Below, one piece after another: positions 15,028-49,577 of a DNA stretch of 64,000 nt (its first letter is position 1; each line of letters begins with the position of its first letter). The stretch is from Escherichia phage W143. A program made the translations under genes and the position numbers. The notes beneath the pieces were generated by a model. It saw only the letters and a program-made list of their open reading frames with translations, was not told the origin of the DNA and did no database searches. The stretch is taken from the sequence record MZ189262.1; one strand, 5' to 3'.

Positions 15028-15546
15028 TTAATAACCTCGGTCTTGACGAGCGAAGTTTTCAGCATTTTTCAGATAATAAAGTTTAAAGATTTCTTCAGCC
15101 GTAAGACCAAGACCTTGGAACATGTTCAGAACGAAATGAAGAATATCAATCATTTCGAATTTAATTTCCAACTGGTCTTGTGGAGACAAATCAGTAATTA
15201 GAGTTTCACGGCGTTCACCATGTTGAGCTTTCCAAGGCTTCCATACTGCAGATGCATCTTTTTCGCCATTGCTCATACCGCCAAGAGAAGTCAGAAGTTC
15301 ACGGAATTCATCGTCAATATAATCTTTCTGATTACGCAGCCAATCAACAACTTCACCAGCAGTAGCCAAATCATCAGGATGACGGTTATATTCAGGTTTA
15401 TCTTTAGCTAAACGAACCTGCAAAGATTTCTGCATATCAAGCATAACCTGCAGCGGGTCTTTTTCATCACCGAGAATATCCCAGTATTCATTTTGAGCTT
15501 TATCAGCGCCTTCGATCAGATGACTACATTCGTTGAAATGTGGCAT
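15028..15546 (-). CDS. 56: dCTP pyrophosphatase gp56
   Basis: 172-aa ORF, MazG-like, at the gene 56 position between soc and gene 61. Confidence 0.85.
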   Translation of the reverse strand: MPHFNECSHLIEGADKAQNEYWDILGDEKDPLQVMLDMQKSLQVRLAKDKPEYNRHPDDLATAGEVVDWLRNQKDYIDDEFRELLTSLGGMSNGEKDASAVWKPWKAQHGERRETLITDLSPQDQLEIKFEMIDILHFVLNMFQGLGLTAEEIFKLYYLKNAENFARQDRGY

Positions 15547-17347: not shown

Positions 17348-17377
17348 ATAGTATCTCAATTTCCAACAAAAGTAAAC
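17348..17377 (-). promoter_or_regulatory. T4-type early promoter
   Basis: GTTTAC 17377-17372, 18 bp, TACTAT. Confidence 0.6.
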
Positions 17378-17631
17378 TATTTTATTTCCTCAAGTTCGTT
17401 AATCAATAAAAGTTCTCTGACGCTAAAAACAAAGAAAAATGTGTTCCCATCAACCATAGCATGACCGCTAATAGAACACCCTCTGCGGAATTTAGAAACT
17501 TCACAATCTAGAACTGTAAAGGGTTTTAATCCTATGACTTTAGCTGTGCGTCTATTCAGTTCACAACCACTTGCGAATTTTTCCAAATCTTCTTCTGATT
17601 TAAACTGATATTCTCTATTAACTAGCATCAT
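17377..17631 (-). CDS. hypothetical protein
   Basis: 84-aa ORF. Confidence 0.5.
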   Translation of the reverse strand: MMLVNREYQFKSEEDLEKFASGCELNRRTAKVIGLKPFTVLDCEVSKFRRGCSISGHAMVDGNTFFFVFSVRELLLINELEEIK

Positions 17632-17662
17632 TTTCTTTTCTCCGCGATTAGCTGATAGAATT

Positions 17663-17692
17663 ACTATAACACAACTCTATCAGCTTGTAAAC
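17663..17692 (-). promoter_or_regulatory. T4-type early promoter
   Basis: GTTTAC 17692-17687, 18 bp, TATAGT. Confidence 0.6.
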
Positions 17693-17694
17693 TA

Positions 17695-17949
17695 CTATTT
17701 TACTAGCATCAATAACTGTTTCTCTAACTTGACTATTTTACGAAAGTATCTTTTGCATTGGCGAATCTGTCGCTTCGTAGGACGTACAACAAACTCAATA
17801 AATTCCACTCGACCGAATGGAGGGCTTTCTTCTGCTGGAATATCTAATACCAATTCCCATGCGGATGAAATAGGTAATTTAAATTTTGTATTTTTCCTAA
17901 CACAGTATGATTCACTGTATGGAGTAGGTTTAAATAAAACAATGTGCAT
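17695..17949 (-). CDS. hypothetical protein
   Basis: track ORF trimmed to the ATG at 17949 (MHIVLFK) with GAGGATAAT Shine-Dalgarno. Confidence 0.45.
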   Translation of the reverse strand: MHIVLFKPTPYSESYCVRKNTKFKLPISSAWELVLDIPAEESPPFGRVEFIEFVVRPTKRQIRQCKRYFRKIVKLEKQLLMLVK

Positions 17950-19628: not shown

Positions 19629-19973
19629 TTAAAAGAATTTAAATTTTTTCTTTGACCTTTTATTAAATGCATCTTGTAGTTGCATTGTAATACATTTTTC
19701 TACATGAGGAGCTAACTCAGCTTTTCTTTCTTGGTCAAGAACAGCAAAGTCCATTACGACTTTTCCATCAACCCAATCTAATTTTGTCACATACACAATG
19801 TGTGTAGAACCATCTTCTAGTTTAATGACAATCTCCTGGATAACATTTTCCATGGCAGATTTAATTATCTTAAGAGATTCATTAAAAAGACGTTCTTTTC
19901 TTTCTTCTTCCCCCTCCGAAGAGGGGGATTCATCGATAATTTCTAGATCTAAATCCAAATCATCTTTATTCAT
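19629..19973 (-). CDS. 40: gp40 head vertex assembly chaperone
   Basis: ORF between uvsX and 41; start set at MNKDDLDLDL; acidic N-terminus. Confidence 0.65.
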   Translation of the reverse strand: MNKDDLDLDLEIIDESPSSEGEEERKERLFNESLKIIKSAMENVIQEIVIKLEDGSTHIVYVTKLDWVDGKVVMDFAVLDQERKAELAPHVEKCITMQLQDAFNKRSKKKFKFF

Positions 19974-21147
19974 TAAATTCTTCCATATCACTTAACTGAT
20001 CTAGGTCAGTTTCTAAATCAGCTGCTGATTTACTTTTACTTTCTGGAGATTTAAATTTTTCAACCTTTGAGTTAATCAATTCATCAACTTCAGCTTCAAC
20101 AATTTCATTACTATCAATAGCACCTAACTGATAAGCGCGTTTAATAGCATCTCGGAATGGTTGATGCTTAAATAAAGGACCCCAGAATGTAGTGCAATTG
20201 GTATCTTTTGCACGCCAAGATTTTTCTTCGCGAATCATCTCACCGGTTTCTTCGTCAAGAAATTCACGAGCATACCAACCGTTTTTAGGTTTTACTACAA
20301 ATCCTAATTCAAGAGCCATATCTAACAATCCAGAATAAGGATCGATGCCACCGTCAAATTTAACATCAATAAAGAATTTACTTTTTTCTTTGACGGTACG
20401 AGATTTTTCTACATTTAGAACAAATTGATACCCCTGGAGATCAGAACCATCTTTAATCTGGCGCTTACCGATAATGAATACAGTATCAGCCGAATACATT
20501 ACGCCTGTACCACCTGTCATCACGGTTTTACTAAACATTTCAATTGTTTCAATTGTATGGTTAACCGCAACACATGGAATGTTTTTAATACTAAAATAAG
20601 GAGTAACAATACGGAATAATGACTTCAGTGATTTAGCACGAGTCATATCTGCCACAGATTTTTCATTCAAGGCATCTTCCGTTTCTTTCTTAGAAGCCAT
20701 ATTACCGATTGAGTCGATGAATACAATAACTTTTTCACCGCGCTCGATAGCTTCAAGCTGATTCACCATATCAATTTTCAGTTGTTCAACTGACTGAATT
20801 GGCGTATGAATTACTCGTTCCGGGTCAACTCCCATGGATCGCAAATAAGCTGGAGTAATACCAAATTCGCTATCATAAAATAGACATACCGCGTCAGGAT
20901 ATTTGTTCAAATACGCCGCAACCATAGTCAAAGACATATTTGATTTAAAGTGTTTAGAAGGACCTGCAAAAATGGTTAAACCAGACTGCATTCCACCATC
21001 AATCGCACCTGAAATAGCGATATTAAGCATTGGAATTTTTGTACGGATTACATCCTTTTCATTAAAGAATTTAGATGTAGTCAGTTCAGCAGTCATTTTA
21101 GAAGTGGAAGCTTTAATCAAACGGGATTTTAAATCTGCAATAGACAT
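19966..21147 (-). CDS. uvsX: UvsX recombinase (RecA-like)
   Basis: 393-aa ORF; Walker A GPSKHFKS, RecA fold; N-terminus differs slightly from T4. Confidence 0.9.
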   Translation of the reverse strand: MSIADLKSRLIKASTSKMTAELTTSKFFNEKDVIRTKIPMLNIAISGAIDGGMQSGLTIFAGPSKHFKSNMSLTMVAAYLNKYPDAVCLFYDSEFGITPAYLRSMGVDPERVIHTPIQSVEQLKIDMVNQLEAIERGEKVIVFIDSIGNMASKKETEDALNEKSVADMTRAKSLKSLFRIVTPYFSIKNIPCVAVNHTIETIEMFSKTVMTGGTGVMYSADTVFIIGKRQIKDGSDLQGYQFVLNVEKSRTVKEKSKFFIDVKFDGGIDPYSGLLDMALELGFVVKPKNGWYAREFLDEETGEMIREEKSWRAKDTNCTTFWGPLFKHQPFRDAIKRAYQLGAIDSNEIVEAEVDELINSKVEKFKSPESKSKSAADLETDLDQLSDMEEFNE

Positions 21148-21200
21148 TCATTTTTTCCATAGGCATCATTATATTTTCCTCACTGGTTAAAGATAGAGTA

Positions 21201-21224
21201 ATTATAACACAATAAATTTAGGCA
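21201..21224 (-). promoter_or_regulatory. middle-promoter-like element (TGCCTAA box, 11 bp, TATAAT)
   Basis: minus-strand MotA-box variant then TATAAT upstream of uvsX. Confidence 0.3.
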
Positions 21225-22073
21225 TTAATCAACCGCTATTGGATGAATAGCATTAAACTTATGAAACGCTTCTGATTTTTCTTTGCGTGAAACACACATG
21301 CGAAGAACCTTTAATGGCTCGTCTTCTTCACCTAATGATTTTCGTTTTTCAATATTAGAAGTTTTCCAACGAGCTTGCTCTGGAAACTCTCTATTGATTT
21401 GCTCAAGAGCTCTATTATGTTTTGAATTACTACGAATTGAACTACATCCACCGGGGGCTTGTGCTTTTCCAGATACAACTAGATATTTGAACAAGGCCAA
21501 ATGCGGATAACCTTGATTAATTAAATTGAGAAATGCATACATATCTTCGCATAAATCAATTTTTCCATACCCAATTTGTTCTGTTGTAAGTTTTCCGAGG
21601 TCATACCAGGTATTCGTGAATCCATATGAATTTTCACGATAATTACCCCAAGATGAAGTAATTTTAAAAATAGGTAGACGAGCATGACCGTGATAATACC
21701 CACAATCCATTGCATCTTCCACGTATTGAATCAATTCATAGAACTGTTCACGGGTTAACTGATTAATTTTATCTACGCAGCGACGATCATCTTTCTTTCG
21801 CATTGAACTCATACGAATAGTAGTATCATCGTCAATCATCCAAATTCGTTGACCTGCATACATATCAGTAATTGCTTTACGAGTACCAGCAATTCCATTG
21901 ACATCATCAGGAATAGTTATAATTTTAGCTCTAGACCCATAAGCGTCATAATAAGCTTTTTCTTCGTGTTTACGTACTACAATATGAGGTTCATAATCAG
22001 TCGGAAACATATCAAGGGCAGAAACTGCCCCTACGCGTTGATAGCTTGGAATTACGAATTGAATCATTTCCAC
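21225..22073 (-). CDS. DNA glycosyltransferase, GT-A/DXD type (candidate beta-glucosyl-HMC alpha-glucosyltransferase)
   Basis: 282-aa ORF at the beta-gt position but unlike T4 beta-gt; DXD motif IWMIDDDTTI. Confidence 0.5.
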   Translation of the reverse strand: MEMIQFVIPSYQRVGAVSALDMFPTDYEPHIVVRKHEEKAYYDAYGSRAKIITIPDDVNGIAGTRKAITDMYAGQRIWMIDDDTTIRMSSMRKKDDRRCVDKINQLTREQFYELIQYVEDAMDCGYYHGHARLPIFKITSSWGNYRENSYGFTNTWYDLGKLTTEQIGYGKIDLCEDMYAFLNLINQGYPHLALFKYLVVSGKAQAPGGCSSIRSNSKHNRALEQINREFPEQARWKTSNIEKRKSLGEEDEPLKVLRMCVSRKEKSEAFHKFNAIHPIAVD

Positions 22074-22804
22074 TCACCATTATAATCTTTTTTCGCAATA
22101 TGAGTTTCGCCAGTTTTCCACCAATGGTCAACCAAATAAAAATGACGGGAATACACATGAAGGCTTCCGACATTCCATATAATGGAACCTGCTTTATACT
22201 GACGAGTTGAATCGCCTGCATTCAAATCAGATACTAATTCATTTAGTACGTATTTTTGCCATGCATAATCATTACGGAATCCGAAGACCACGTCATTTGA
22301 ACGCATGCTTACTACTGCATTGACTTTCTTATCACGAATCAGGTACTGTACTGTATTCGTACACATGAAATCTGACATACCATCTTTGTTGTAGTCAAAC
22401 TGCATGGATGGACGAGTATAAATCATGATACCACGCCGAGAATCAGGATTTTGACCAAGTTCAGCTAAACACATATCATACTGAGCATAGTTATCTTCTG
22501 ACCAAATAGCCCAACCATAATTCGAGTTAATTTCGCCTTTAGAAGATGCTACCTGCTGCCAAATCTTTGGTGTTTCACCTGGAATATCTTTAACAAACAA
22601 ACTTTGAGACTTATACCATTCAAGTTCACGTTGAATGTATTCATCATTAAGAGCGCCAAAAATAAAAGGTTCATCTGCTACAAATGATGCACCAATAATT
22701 TCAATAGTTTTAACACCAGTTTTATCAACTACGAAATCTTTTTCTTTTAATGCAAGCCCCAAATGAAGACGGATTTCTTCAACTGTCATAGAGTCATTAA
22801 TCAT
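22064..22804 (-). CDS. 42: dCMP hydroxymethylase gp42
   Basis: 246-aa ORF, thymidylate-synthase-like. Confidence 0.9.
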   Translation of the reverse strand: MINDSMTVEEIRLHLGLALKEKDFVVDKTGVKTIEIIGASFVADEPFIFGALNDEYIQRELEWYKSQSLFVKDIPGETPKIWQQVASSKGEINSNYGWAIWSEDNYAQYDMCLAELGQNPDSRRGIMIYTRPSMQFDYNKDGMSDFMCTNTVQYLIRDKKVNAVVSMRSNDVVFGFRNDYAWQKYVLNELVSDLNAGDSTRQYKAGSIIWNVGSLHVYSRHFYLVDHWWKTGETHIAKKDYNGEWK

Positions 22805-33190: not shown

Positions 33191-33208
33191 AAAGGGCCGA
33201 AGCCCTTT
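33191..33208 (-). other. UUCG-tetraloop hairpin at the alpha-gt 3' end
   Basis: AAAGGGC-CGAA-GCCCTTT palindrome overlapping the alpha-gt stop. Confidence 0.55.
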
Positions 33209-34409
33209 ATTTTGTAATAATGTCAAACTGTTCTTTAAAGCAGAAGCTTGAATCTTGATGCTGATACAGAAATTCATAAGCTTTTTCACGTTCACGGTCA
33301 TAAAGAGCTCGATCAGATGACAGTTCTTTAATACGTTCAAATGTTGATTCCATGTCATTTTCATCAAACCAAACGATACCGCTATCGTGTGAAATTAATG
33401 GAGTATTATCAACACGGAATTTTAAATTTTCGCCAGTAGATTTCCAAAATACTGGAATTGTTCCACATGCACCAAGCTCGAGATGAGTGTATTCTAAAGA
33501 ACGCTGTAGATATTTTTTGTCCAACTTACTCAGCTGATAACCAAATCCGGATTTACTCATGCGTTCAAGCATTTCGCTATTTACATAACGGTCGAGAATT
33601 TGCGTTGGCAAATTAGGAGCAATTTTAATTTGGTCTACTTGATGAAGACGATAATACTCATATGGAATTCCTTTTTCTTTAATAGGAATGAATGCTGGAG
33701 AACGTTCCAGACCTTCCATAATAGTACTTAGTCCTGCAGGTTTAAGATGTTTTTCGTGAAAATCAAACATCTGGTAAAAACCTTTCCATGTAGTCGTACG
33801 ACCAATCCAACGGTTGATATTCATGTTAATTTCAGAAACATCTTTCCAGTAGGTTGATCGAACCTTCGCAATATCCATAGGAGGCTGAAAGTTGTATACG
33901 GTCGGCGCTTCTTCAATATCATCAAACAAAGAAACAGTTTCCGGATACCATTCTTTCATTAAAACTTTATTAAAATCACCATTATCAGAATGGCTAAAAA
34001 TAACATCAGCTCGACGAACAGTTTCTTCTAATCCCAAATTTCGGCGTAAAGAAAGAGAAGAATGGTCATGCTGATAAACTACAACACGAACCGAAGGTTT
34101 AATGTTATCAATAATTTTTTTATAGTTATTAATGGTGTCTTCTTCTACTGAAGTAGCAGGAACTGAATTGATAATTAGAATATCACAATCATTTACCAGC
34201 TTAAGTGTTTTATCGTATTCTTTTGCCAATAAAACTGGAATTGAAAATGATTTATAATCATGCGCGCAATTACGAGTAAATGATTTATCTTTAGCATAAA
34301 CCAAAGTTACTTCATGACCATTTTTAATAAACCAATCACGTTGCTCAAGAGAAAATTTAGTTACACCGCAACCTTCAAGACCTCGAGCCATAAAAATACA
34401 TACTTTCAT
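33207..34409 (-). CDS. a-gt: DNA alpha-glucosyltransferase
   Basis: 400-aa ORF (MKVCIFMARGLEGCGVTKFSLEQ...), GT-B-like; recognisable as T-even alpha-gt. Confidence 0.85.
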   Translation of the reverse strand: MKVCIFMARGLEGCGVTKFSLEQRDWFIKNGHEVTLVYAKDKSFTRNCAHDYKSFSIPVLLAKEYDKTLKLVNDCDILIINSVPATSVEEDTINNYKKIIDNIKPSVRVVVYQHDHSSLSLRRNLGLEETVRRADVIFSHSDNGDFNKVLMKEWYPETVSLFDDIEEAPTVYNFQPPMDIAKVRSTYWKDVSEINMNINRWIGRTTTWKGFYQMFDFHEKHLKPAGLSTIMEGLERSPAFIPIKEKGIPYEYYRLHQVDQIKIAPNLPTQILDRYVNSEMLERMSKSGFGYQLSKLDKKYLQRSLEYTHLELGACGTIPVFWKSTGENLKFRVDNTPLISHDSGIVWFDENDMESTFERIKELSSDRALYDREREKAYEFLYQHQDSSFCFKEQFDIITK

Positions 34410-35942: not shown

Positions 35943-35983
35943 AATATTTGAAGATCTATCTTAAAGCATAGAGGATAAATCAG

Positions 35984-36253
35984 CTATCTAAGTAAACAGT
36001 ATGCTTGGAATACTTTCTCCATCATCTTTTTAAATTCATGAATATCTATATAATGACTAGTTAAATCAGCATGATATAAAAAGTCTAAAAACTTTTCATG
36101 TGTGCTAACATATTCGCTTTCATTTAATTCAGAAACATGGCTTTCCCAATATCCAACACCAGTCTTATTTGGGAAAAATGAAATTTTCATATATTGGTCA
36201 ACATAGAAAATTCCATAATTTTCAATAGTAATAGAAATATTAATAAATTTCAT
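35984..36253 (-). CDS. hypothetical protein
   Basis: 89-aa ORF. Confidence 0.5.
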   Translation of the reverse strand: MKFINISITIENYGIFYVDQYMKISFFPNKTGVGYWESHVSELNESEYVSTHEKFLDFLYHADLTSHYIDIHEFKKMMEKVFQAYCLLR

Positions 36254-48857: not shown

Positions 48858-49577
48858 TTAGGATTCTTTTAAATGTCTTTTCTGAAAAGTTGATACCATA
48901 CTACGATACGGTTCATTTGGATACCCGTGTTTTATAGCTTCCTTTGTAAATTTTCTCCATCCATATTTAGTTTCTTTCCAAAGCTCGAATAATTCATCTT
49001 CATACTGCCATATAGTTAAATGAGAACGCTTTGCAGCTTTAATTCCATTAATATGCTTTTCTTTTACTACAGGATTGCTTAGTTTCTTTTTAATAATATT
49101 ACTAACTTTTCTAACAAAAACTGGGTCCTTATATCGTTGCGAAGTTTTTATTGAAGTGTTTAATTTAGCTTCCGGTGTAGATGTGACCTCTTTCATCTTT
49201 TTCTTCATATGCTGTATATGATTAGGATTTTTCCATAAATTTATAGAATGCTTTTTGCATTTTATCCTAGTTTCATCTGCAACCTTTCCTCCTTCACCTC
49301 CGTATGACAGGTTAACACAGTTTTTTCCATATTTCAATTTACCTGCCATGATATATAATATTTCAGCTTGTACCATTTTATCATAATTATCAAAAACTTC
49401 TAAAACCGTTTTTGATAATATGTGGTCATTTGACACTTTTACACGTTCTATATAATTTCCACTACCAACATACGAATCATTGATGTTATTAGTTATATGT
49501 CGACCATAATAGTATTTCTTAATACCTGTCTTTAAATTTAATATTTCAGTTTTATAGATAGTAAAATATTTTTTCAT
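48858..49577 (-). CDS. putative degenerate GIY-YIG (Seg-like) endonuclease
   Basis: 239-aa ORF; N-terminal TIY...(12 aa)...YYG-R resembling GIY-YIG, lysine-rich C-terminal half; weak. Confidence 0.35.
   Translation of the reverse strand: MKKYFTIYKTEILNLKTGIKKYYYGRHITNNINDSYVGSGNYIERVKVSNDHILSKTVLEVFDNYDKMVQAEILYIMAGKLKYGKNCVNLSYGGEGGKVADETRIKCKKHSINLWKNPNHIQHMKKKMKEVTSTPEAKLNTSIKTSQRYKDPVFVRKVSNIIKKKLSNPVVKEKHINGIKAAKRSHLTIWQYEDELFELWKETKYGWRKFTKEAIKHGYPNEPYRSMVSTFQKRHLKES

Follow-up and report, generated by a model that had tools for sequence, protein, structure and literature searches.

The ba-gt gene (ggt), which was described in phages T2 and T6 decades ago, encodes an enzyme classified as EC 2.4.1.28, and the b-gt of T4, which lies in the same genomic slot, is assigned to family GT63. 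The T2 and T6 enzyme extends alpha-glucosyl-hmC by another glucose, joined through a beta-1,6 linkage, to yield gentiobiosyl-hmC, and this product was found at 72% of the cytosines in T6 and at 5% in T2 (PMC6024577, PMC13390438). The gene was re-examined in papers of 2024–2026 (PMC11078745, PMC13216743, PMC13390438). Deletion of ba-gt in T6 left only alpha-glucosyl-hmC and raised the sensitivity to the Brig1 glycosylase (PMC11078745); Brig1 excises alpha-glucosyl-hmC and not gentiobiosyl-hmC, and GmrSD-type enzymes cut both (PMC11078745, PMC13216743). According to PMC13216743, most phages pair an a-GT or a b-GT with a TAGT protein and both a-GT and b-GT are present in only 6 of 753 genomes. 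The same paper gives the fold of T4 b-gt as GT-B and places alpha-GT in GT63 and beta-GT in GT72, which is at odds with the GT63 given above for b-gt (PMC13216743).

The window analysed here is a stretch of 64,000 nucleotides of Escherichia phage W143. A gene on its minus strand, at 21225..22067 (280 aa from ATG), is very likely a beta-glucosyl-HMC-alpha-glucosyltransferase of the T2/T6 type (ba-gt, ggt or TAGT), an enzyme which, by analogy, would add a second glucose to alpha-glucosyl-hmC. The six-frame list of open reading frames gave an uninterrupted minus-strand frame at 21225..22073, which has 282 aa if read from GTG and is flanked by uvsX (19966..21147), encoding a 393-aa RecA-like protein, and gene 42 (22064..22804). 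The frame and its position between uvsX and gene 42 are those given in an earlier, sequence-only reading and both hold, but the length of 282 aa given there is likely to be 280 aa. At the junction of gene 42 and ba-gt the minus strand reads ...AATGGTGAGTGGAAATGATTCAA...; here, an ATG at 22067 overlaps the stop codon TGA of gene 42 as ATGA, a common layout for adjacent genes that are read one after another, and a Shine-Dalgarno-like stretch, GGTGAG, is located just 5' of this ATG. The orthologous coding sequences are annotated with 843 nt in PP01 and T2 and with 840 nt in T6, all of them from the corresponding ATG. Because of the ATGA overlap with the gene 42 stop and the annotation of the homologues, the ATG at 22067 is most likely the start codon, and the GTG at 22073 was dropped as a candidate. 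The GC content was 0.34–0.37 across the frame and no different from that of the surroundings. A scan for promoters and terminators gave counts at the level of shuffled controls. At 22013-22033 on the minus strand there is a GC-rich hairpin of 9 bp (GGGGCAG...CTGCCC) with T-rich sequence after it, within the first 60 nt of the coding sequence; one hairpin-type site was found where about 1.2 were expected by chance, and it probably carries no meaning.

Over all of its 280 aa, the protein shares 98% identity with the proteins encoded at the uvsX-42 locus of T2 (AP018813) and T6 (AP018814); its identity is 99% with the protein at the ba-gt locus of PP01 and 100% with a protein of Salmonella phage Lv5cm. 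PHROG 842, annotated as 'beta-glucosyl-HMC-alpha-glucosyltransferase', matched the whole protein (E=3.9e-89). Pfam family PF20691 (TAGT, for TET-associated glycosyltransferase) matched with 38.3 bits at a cut-off of 27.5 and over profile positions 2-205 of 205, and it was also present in 8 of the 9 full-length database relatives; NCBIfam had no model for ba-gt or a-gt. T4-like phages of Enterobacter and Klebsiella (63–66%) and of Serratia (47%) have more distant relatives in the same slot, adjoining the dCMP hydroxymethylase. The protein homologue search gave only 11 clusters, a limit of its word-index sensitivity, which was enough for a shallow AlphaFold2 alignment and not for a wider survey of TAGT proteins. 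The ba-gt genes of T2 and T6 share with that of the window the position between uvsX and gene 42, the ATGA overlap with gene 42 and the partner a-gt, and the DDD motif of T2 and of T6 MH550421 is identical to that of the window. The proteins differ by a handful of substitutions, among them K33 versus E, K92 versus R and I101 versus V.

The beta-glucosyl-HMC alpha-glucosyltransferase preferred in the sequence-only reading is thus borne out by the 98% identity to the T2 and T6 enzymes, PHROG 842 and Pfam TAGT, and the alternative given there, another sugar-modification enzyme using, for example, arabinose, is not supported. An arabinosyl-hmC transferase like that of RB69 appears unlikely on indirect grounds: the window has an a-gt like that of T2, and the enzymes to which the protein is 98% identical come from phages whose DNA carries glucose as its only sugar. 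Few residues, K33 for instance, differ from T2 and T6, and in PMC13216743 TAGT homologues occur together with a-GT, together with b-GT or alone, with specificities that are not all defined; this could leave room for a TAGT-family enzyme of another specificity, for arabinose or a different sugar as donor or for bare hmC as acceptor, which would produce a DNA modification unseen in T2 and T6. Such a specificity is highly improbable: a protein that is 98–100% identical to the T2/T6 clade is unlikely to have switched donor or acceptor, every position invariant in the family is kept in an alignment of 9 homologues, the T2-like a-gt supplies the normal acceptor, and T6-like phages with the same pair of genes contain gentiobiosyl-dC (PMC13390438).

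In T4 the place between uvsX and gene 42 is taken by b-gt, which, like ba-gt, uses UDP-glucose and has phage hmC DNA as its target; however, b-gt acts on bare hmC whereas ba-gt acts on alpha-glucosyl-hmC, and next to b-gt T4 has the homing endonuclease gene segA, which the slot in the window lacks. This shared position, and the fact that some records name the TAGT-type gene 'b-gt', could suggest that the gene of the window is a diverged orthologue of T4 b-gt, which would place a single beta-glucose directly on hmC, but there is hardly any chance of that. BLASTP of the protein against T4 b-gt (NP_049658 region) gave only matches at chance level (best E=3.3). T4 b-gt matches PF09198 at 9.4e-98 whereas the protein of the window matches PF20691 and had no PF09198 match in Pfam, the lengths are 351 and 280 aa, and the fold of T4 b-gt is GT-B (PMC13216743) whereas the model of the window protein is GT-A-like. 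Orthology to T4 b-gt was therefore rejected on BLASTP, Pfam families and model fold. The sequence-only reading had seen no resemblance to T4 beta-gt and had named clear orthology to it as the finding that would speak against its proposal; such orthology was looked for and, as these data show, is not there. Nor was a T4-type b-gt found elsewhere in the window by tblastn with T4 b-gt (best E=1.5).

The DNA of the window is 92–95% identical to that of T4 as far as 21135 and from 22082 onwards. The alignment breaks only at 21135-22082, and the cassette between uvsX and gene 42 alone is exchanged, with segA and b-gt (about 1.9 kb) in T4 and a gene of 0.85 kb in the window. With T2 and T6 the window is collinear through the ba-gt locus. 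A megablast search of 50,697 phage records gave 474 records that match the frame of the window with at least 80% query coverage and 90–98% DNA identity; where the names in these records are specific, they are usually 'beta-glucosyl-HMC-alpha-glucosyltransferase' or 'glucosyl transferase'. T4-type b-gt DNA was present in just 29 phage records, most of them T4 and its derivatives. Since 474 records stand against 29, ba-gt is the common state at the uvsX-42 locus in Tequatrovirus and T4-like coliphages, and the b-gt of T4 the rare exception, in agreement with PMC13216743; the sequence-only reading had not recognised this. Labels of b-gt are confused in the records: the T4-type b-gt of RB55 (KM607002) and RB59 (KM607003) is named 'beta-glucosyl-HMC-alpha-glucosyl-transferase', and the TAGT-type gene of PP01 (LC348379) bears the gene name 'b-gt'. 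The T2 record AP018813 contains many plainly wrong product names, with the gene 41 helicase as 'major capsid protein' and a-gt as 'N-acetylmuramoyl-L-alanine amidase'.

In the alignment of 9 homologues (32–100% identity), the invariant residues include P7, S8, Y9, R11 and D79-D80-D81. The DDD at residues 79-81, encoded by GAC GAT GAT at 21825..21833 on the minus strand, is the DXD-type motif that the sequence-only reading had pointed out, and it is invariant down to the homologue with 32% identity. The AlphaFold2 model built on the 9-sequence alignment was moderately confident (pLDDT 71.4, pTM 0.74), with residues 128-150 and 196-211 below a pLDDT of 50; these two regions are candidates for the surface that binds DNA or the acceptor. 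It predicts a single Rossmann-like nucleotide-sugar-binding domain that is structurally like GT-A enzymes, with D79-D80-D81 directly after a predicted beta-strand of residues 74-79; ba-gt of the window is accordingly modelled as a GT-A-fold glycosyltransferase with a DXD motif. The cellular GT-A enzymes of the GT2 family, such as TarP (6h1j) and the cellulose synthase BcsA, have only 6–15% sequence identity to the protein and use carbohydrate or lipid acceptors whereas ba-gt acts on DNA; furthermore, the C-terminal ~80 residues of the protein have no counterpart in these GT2-family matches. In a sequence search of the PDB no family member with a solved structure was detectable, the best match (E=0.76) being an unrelated RNA-binding protein. 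GT2 enzymes are inverting, and an inverting mechanism would be expected from the GT2-like GT-A fold of ba-gt, which would fit a beta-linked product made from UDP-alpha-glucose. What is shown for ba-gt of the window is its orthology, synteny, family membership and predicted fold class, that its motif is intact and that its partner enzyme is encoded in the window too.

The other enzymes of the modification pathway are encoded in the window as well. Gene 56, a dCTPase/dUTPase gene at 15028..15546 on the minus strand, matches PF08761 at 1.1e-6, and its place, upstream of the block that was aligned, is roughly that of the dCTP pyrophosphatase of T2; the gene is named after T4 gp56. Its product would act at the upstream step and bar unmodified dCTP from the phage DNA. 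Gene 42, also on the minus strand, encodes a dCMP hydroxymethylase of 246 aa (PF00303, thymidylate-synthase family, 8.2e-16), and PP01 and T4 have an annotated gp42 at the corresponding place. It would make the hydroxymethyl-dCMP that is built into DNA by the phage polymerase, and all later additions of sugars would depend on it. The DNA alpha-glucosyltransferase gene a-gt is located at 33207..34409 on the minus strand; it is intact, matches PF11440 at 2.4e-236 and is 99% identical to a-gt of T2 and 91–92% identical to those of T4 and T6. Its product would transfer glucose in alpha linkage onto hmC in DNA, and the alpha-glucosyl-hmC formed would be the acceptor of ba-gt. We infer the catalytic activity of ba-gt itself from the published work on T2 and T6: by analogy, it would use UDP-glucose to attach the second glucose to alpha-glucosyl-hmC through a beta-1,6 linkage, giving gentiobiosyl-hmC. 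The DNA of W143 would then be of the T2/T6 type, with alpha-glucosyl-hmC, gentiobiosyl-hmC and some bare hmC and with no beta-glucosyl-hmC.

The fraction of diglucosylated cytosines in W143 is not predictable from the sequence, because the enzyme of the window resembles those of T2 and T6 to about the same degree, and yet the gentiobiosyl contents of these two phages are more than tenfold apart; the T2-like a-gt does not settle whether diglucosylation in W143 is T2- or T6-like. It is possible, though rather unlikely, that ba-gt contributes little or nothing in W143, either with a low activity as in T2, where about 5% is diglucosylated, or as an inactive allele. The T2 enzyme is equally similar to that of the window and yet yields only about 5% gentiobiosyl-hmC (PMC6024577, PMC13390438), the a-gt of the window is 99% T2-like, and lesions in the ba-gt of two deposited T6 stocks suggest that the gene is dispensable in the laboratory. 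However, the frame is intact and identical or nearly so in hundreds of independent isolates, which implies purifying selection, and a low extent of modification is not equal to absence of function. As to the T6 lesions, ba-gt of T6 MH550421 (L005, 2138-2980) carries an amber codon at codon 10 (CAG to TAG) and its coding sequence is annotated from a later Met, with 261 aa; in T6 AP018814 (L003, 7135-7974), one GAT of (GAT)3 is lost, by which the otherwise invariant DDD becomes DD. T6 is the phage reported with the most gentiobiosyl-hmC, so the lesions may have arisen in laboratory stocks or be errors of sequencing. The protein of the window stands about as far from T2 as from T6 and is paired with a T2-like a-gt. 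An allele unlike both was considered, which might diglucosylate to an unusual extent or in an unusual sequence context, or use bare hmC as acceptor; it would give an undescribed DNA-sugar pattern and defence-evasion profile, and we regard it as most improbable.

With the T2/T6-type enzyme as the preferred assignment, the feature is already known: it is a textbook gene with hundreds of sequenced relatives, one of them with an identical protein, and every question testable at the W143 locus is already testable with T2, T6 or these relatives. The value lies in annotation only, in that the pair of a-gt and ba-gt predicts the type of DNA modification of W143. The sugar pattern bears on the sensitivity to defences against modified DNA; the changed restriction-evasion profile expected in the sequence-only reading agrees with the T6 deletion, in which gentiobiosyl-hmC was removed and Brig1 sensitivity raised (PMC11078745).

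Some other features of the window were observed. Between uvsX and ba-gt there is a spacer of 77 nt (21148-21224), where T4 has segA between uvsX and b-gt. The minus strand of the spacer contains TGTTATAAT, with TATAAT at 21206-21201. We read TGTTATAAT as an extended -10 element, and ATGCCTAAA, upstream of it, resembles a T4 MotA box; together they may be a putative middle promoter for uvsX. In tblastn, T4 SegA weakly matched the stretch 48882-49517 on the minus strand (E=1e-6; 218 aa with 22% identity), which is probably another homing endonuclease gene of the seg type with a GIY-YIG domain. Two stretches, 17377-17714 and 35982-36239, gave no alignment with T2, T6 or T4 at the blastn level, with flanks that are 92–97% identical, and are small variable cassettes. 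The first contains a frame of 84 aa at 17377-17631, which has a counterpart of equal size in PP01.
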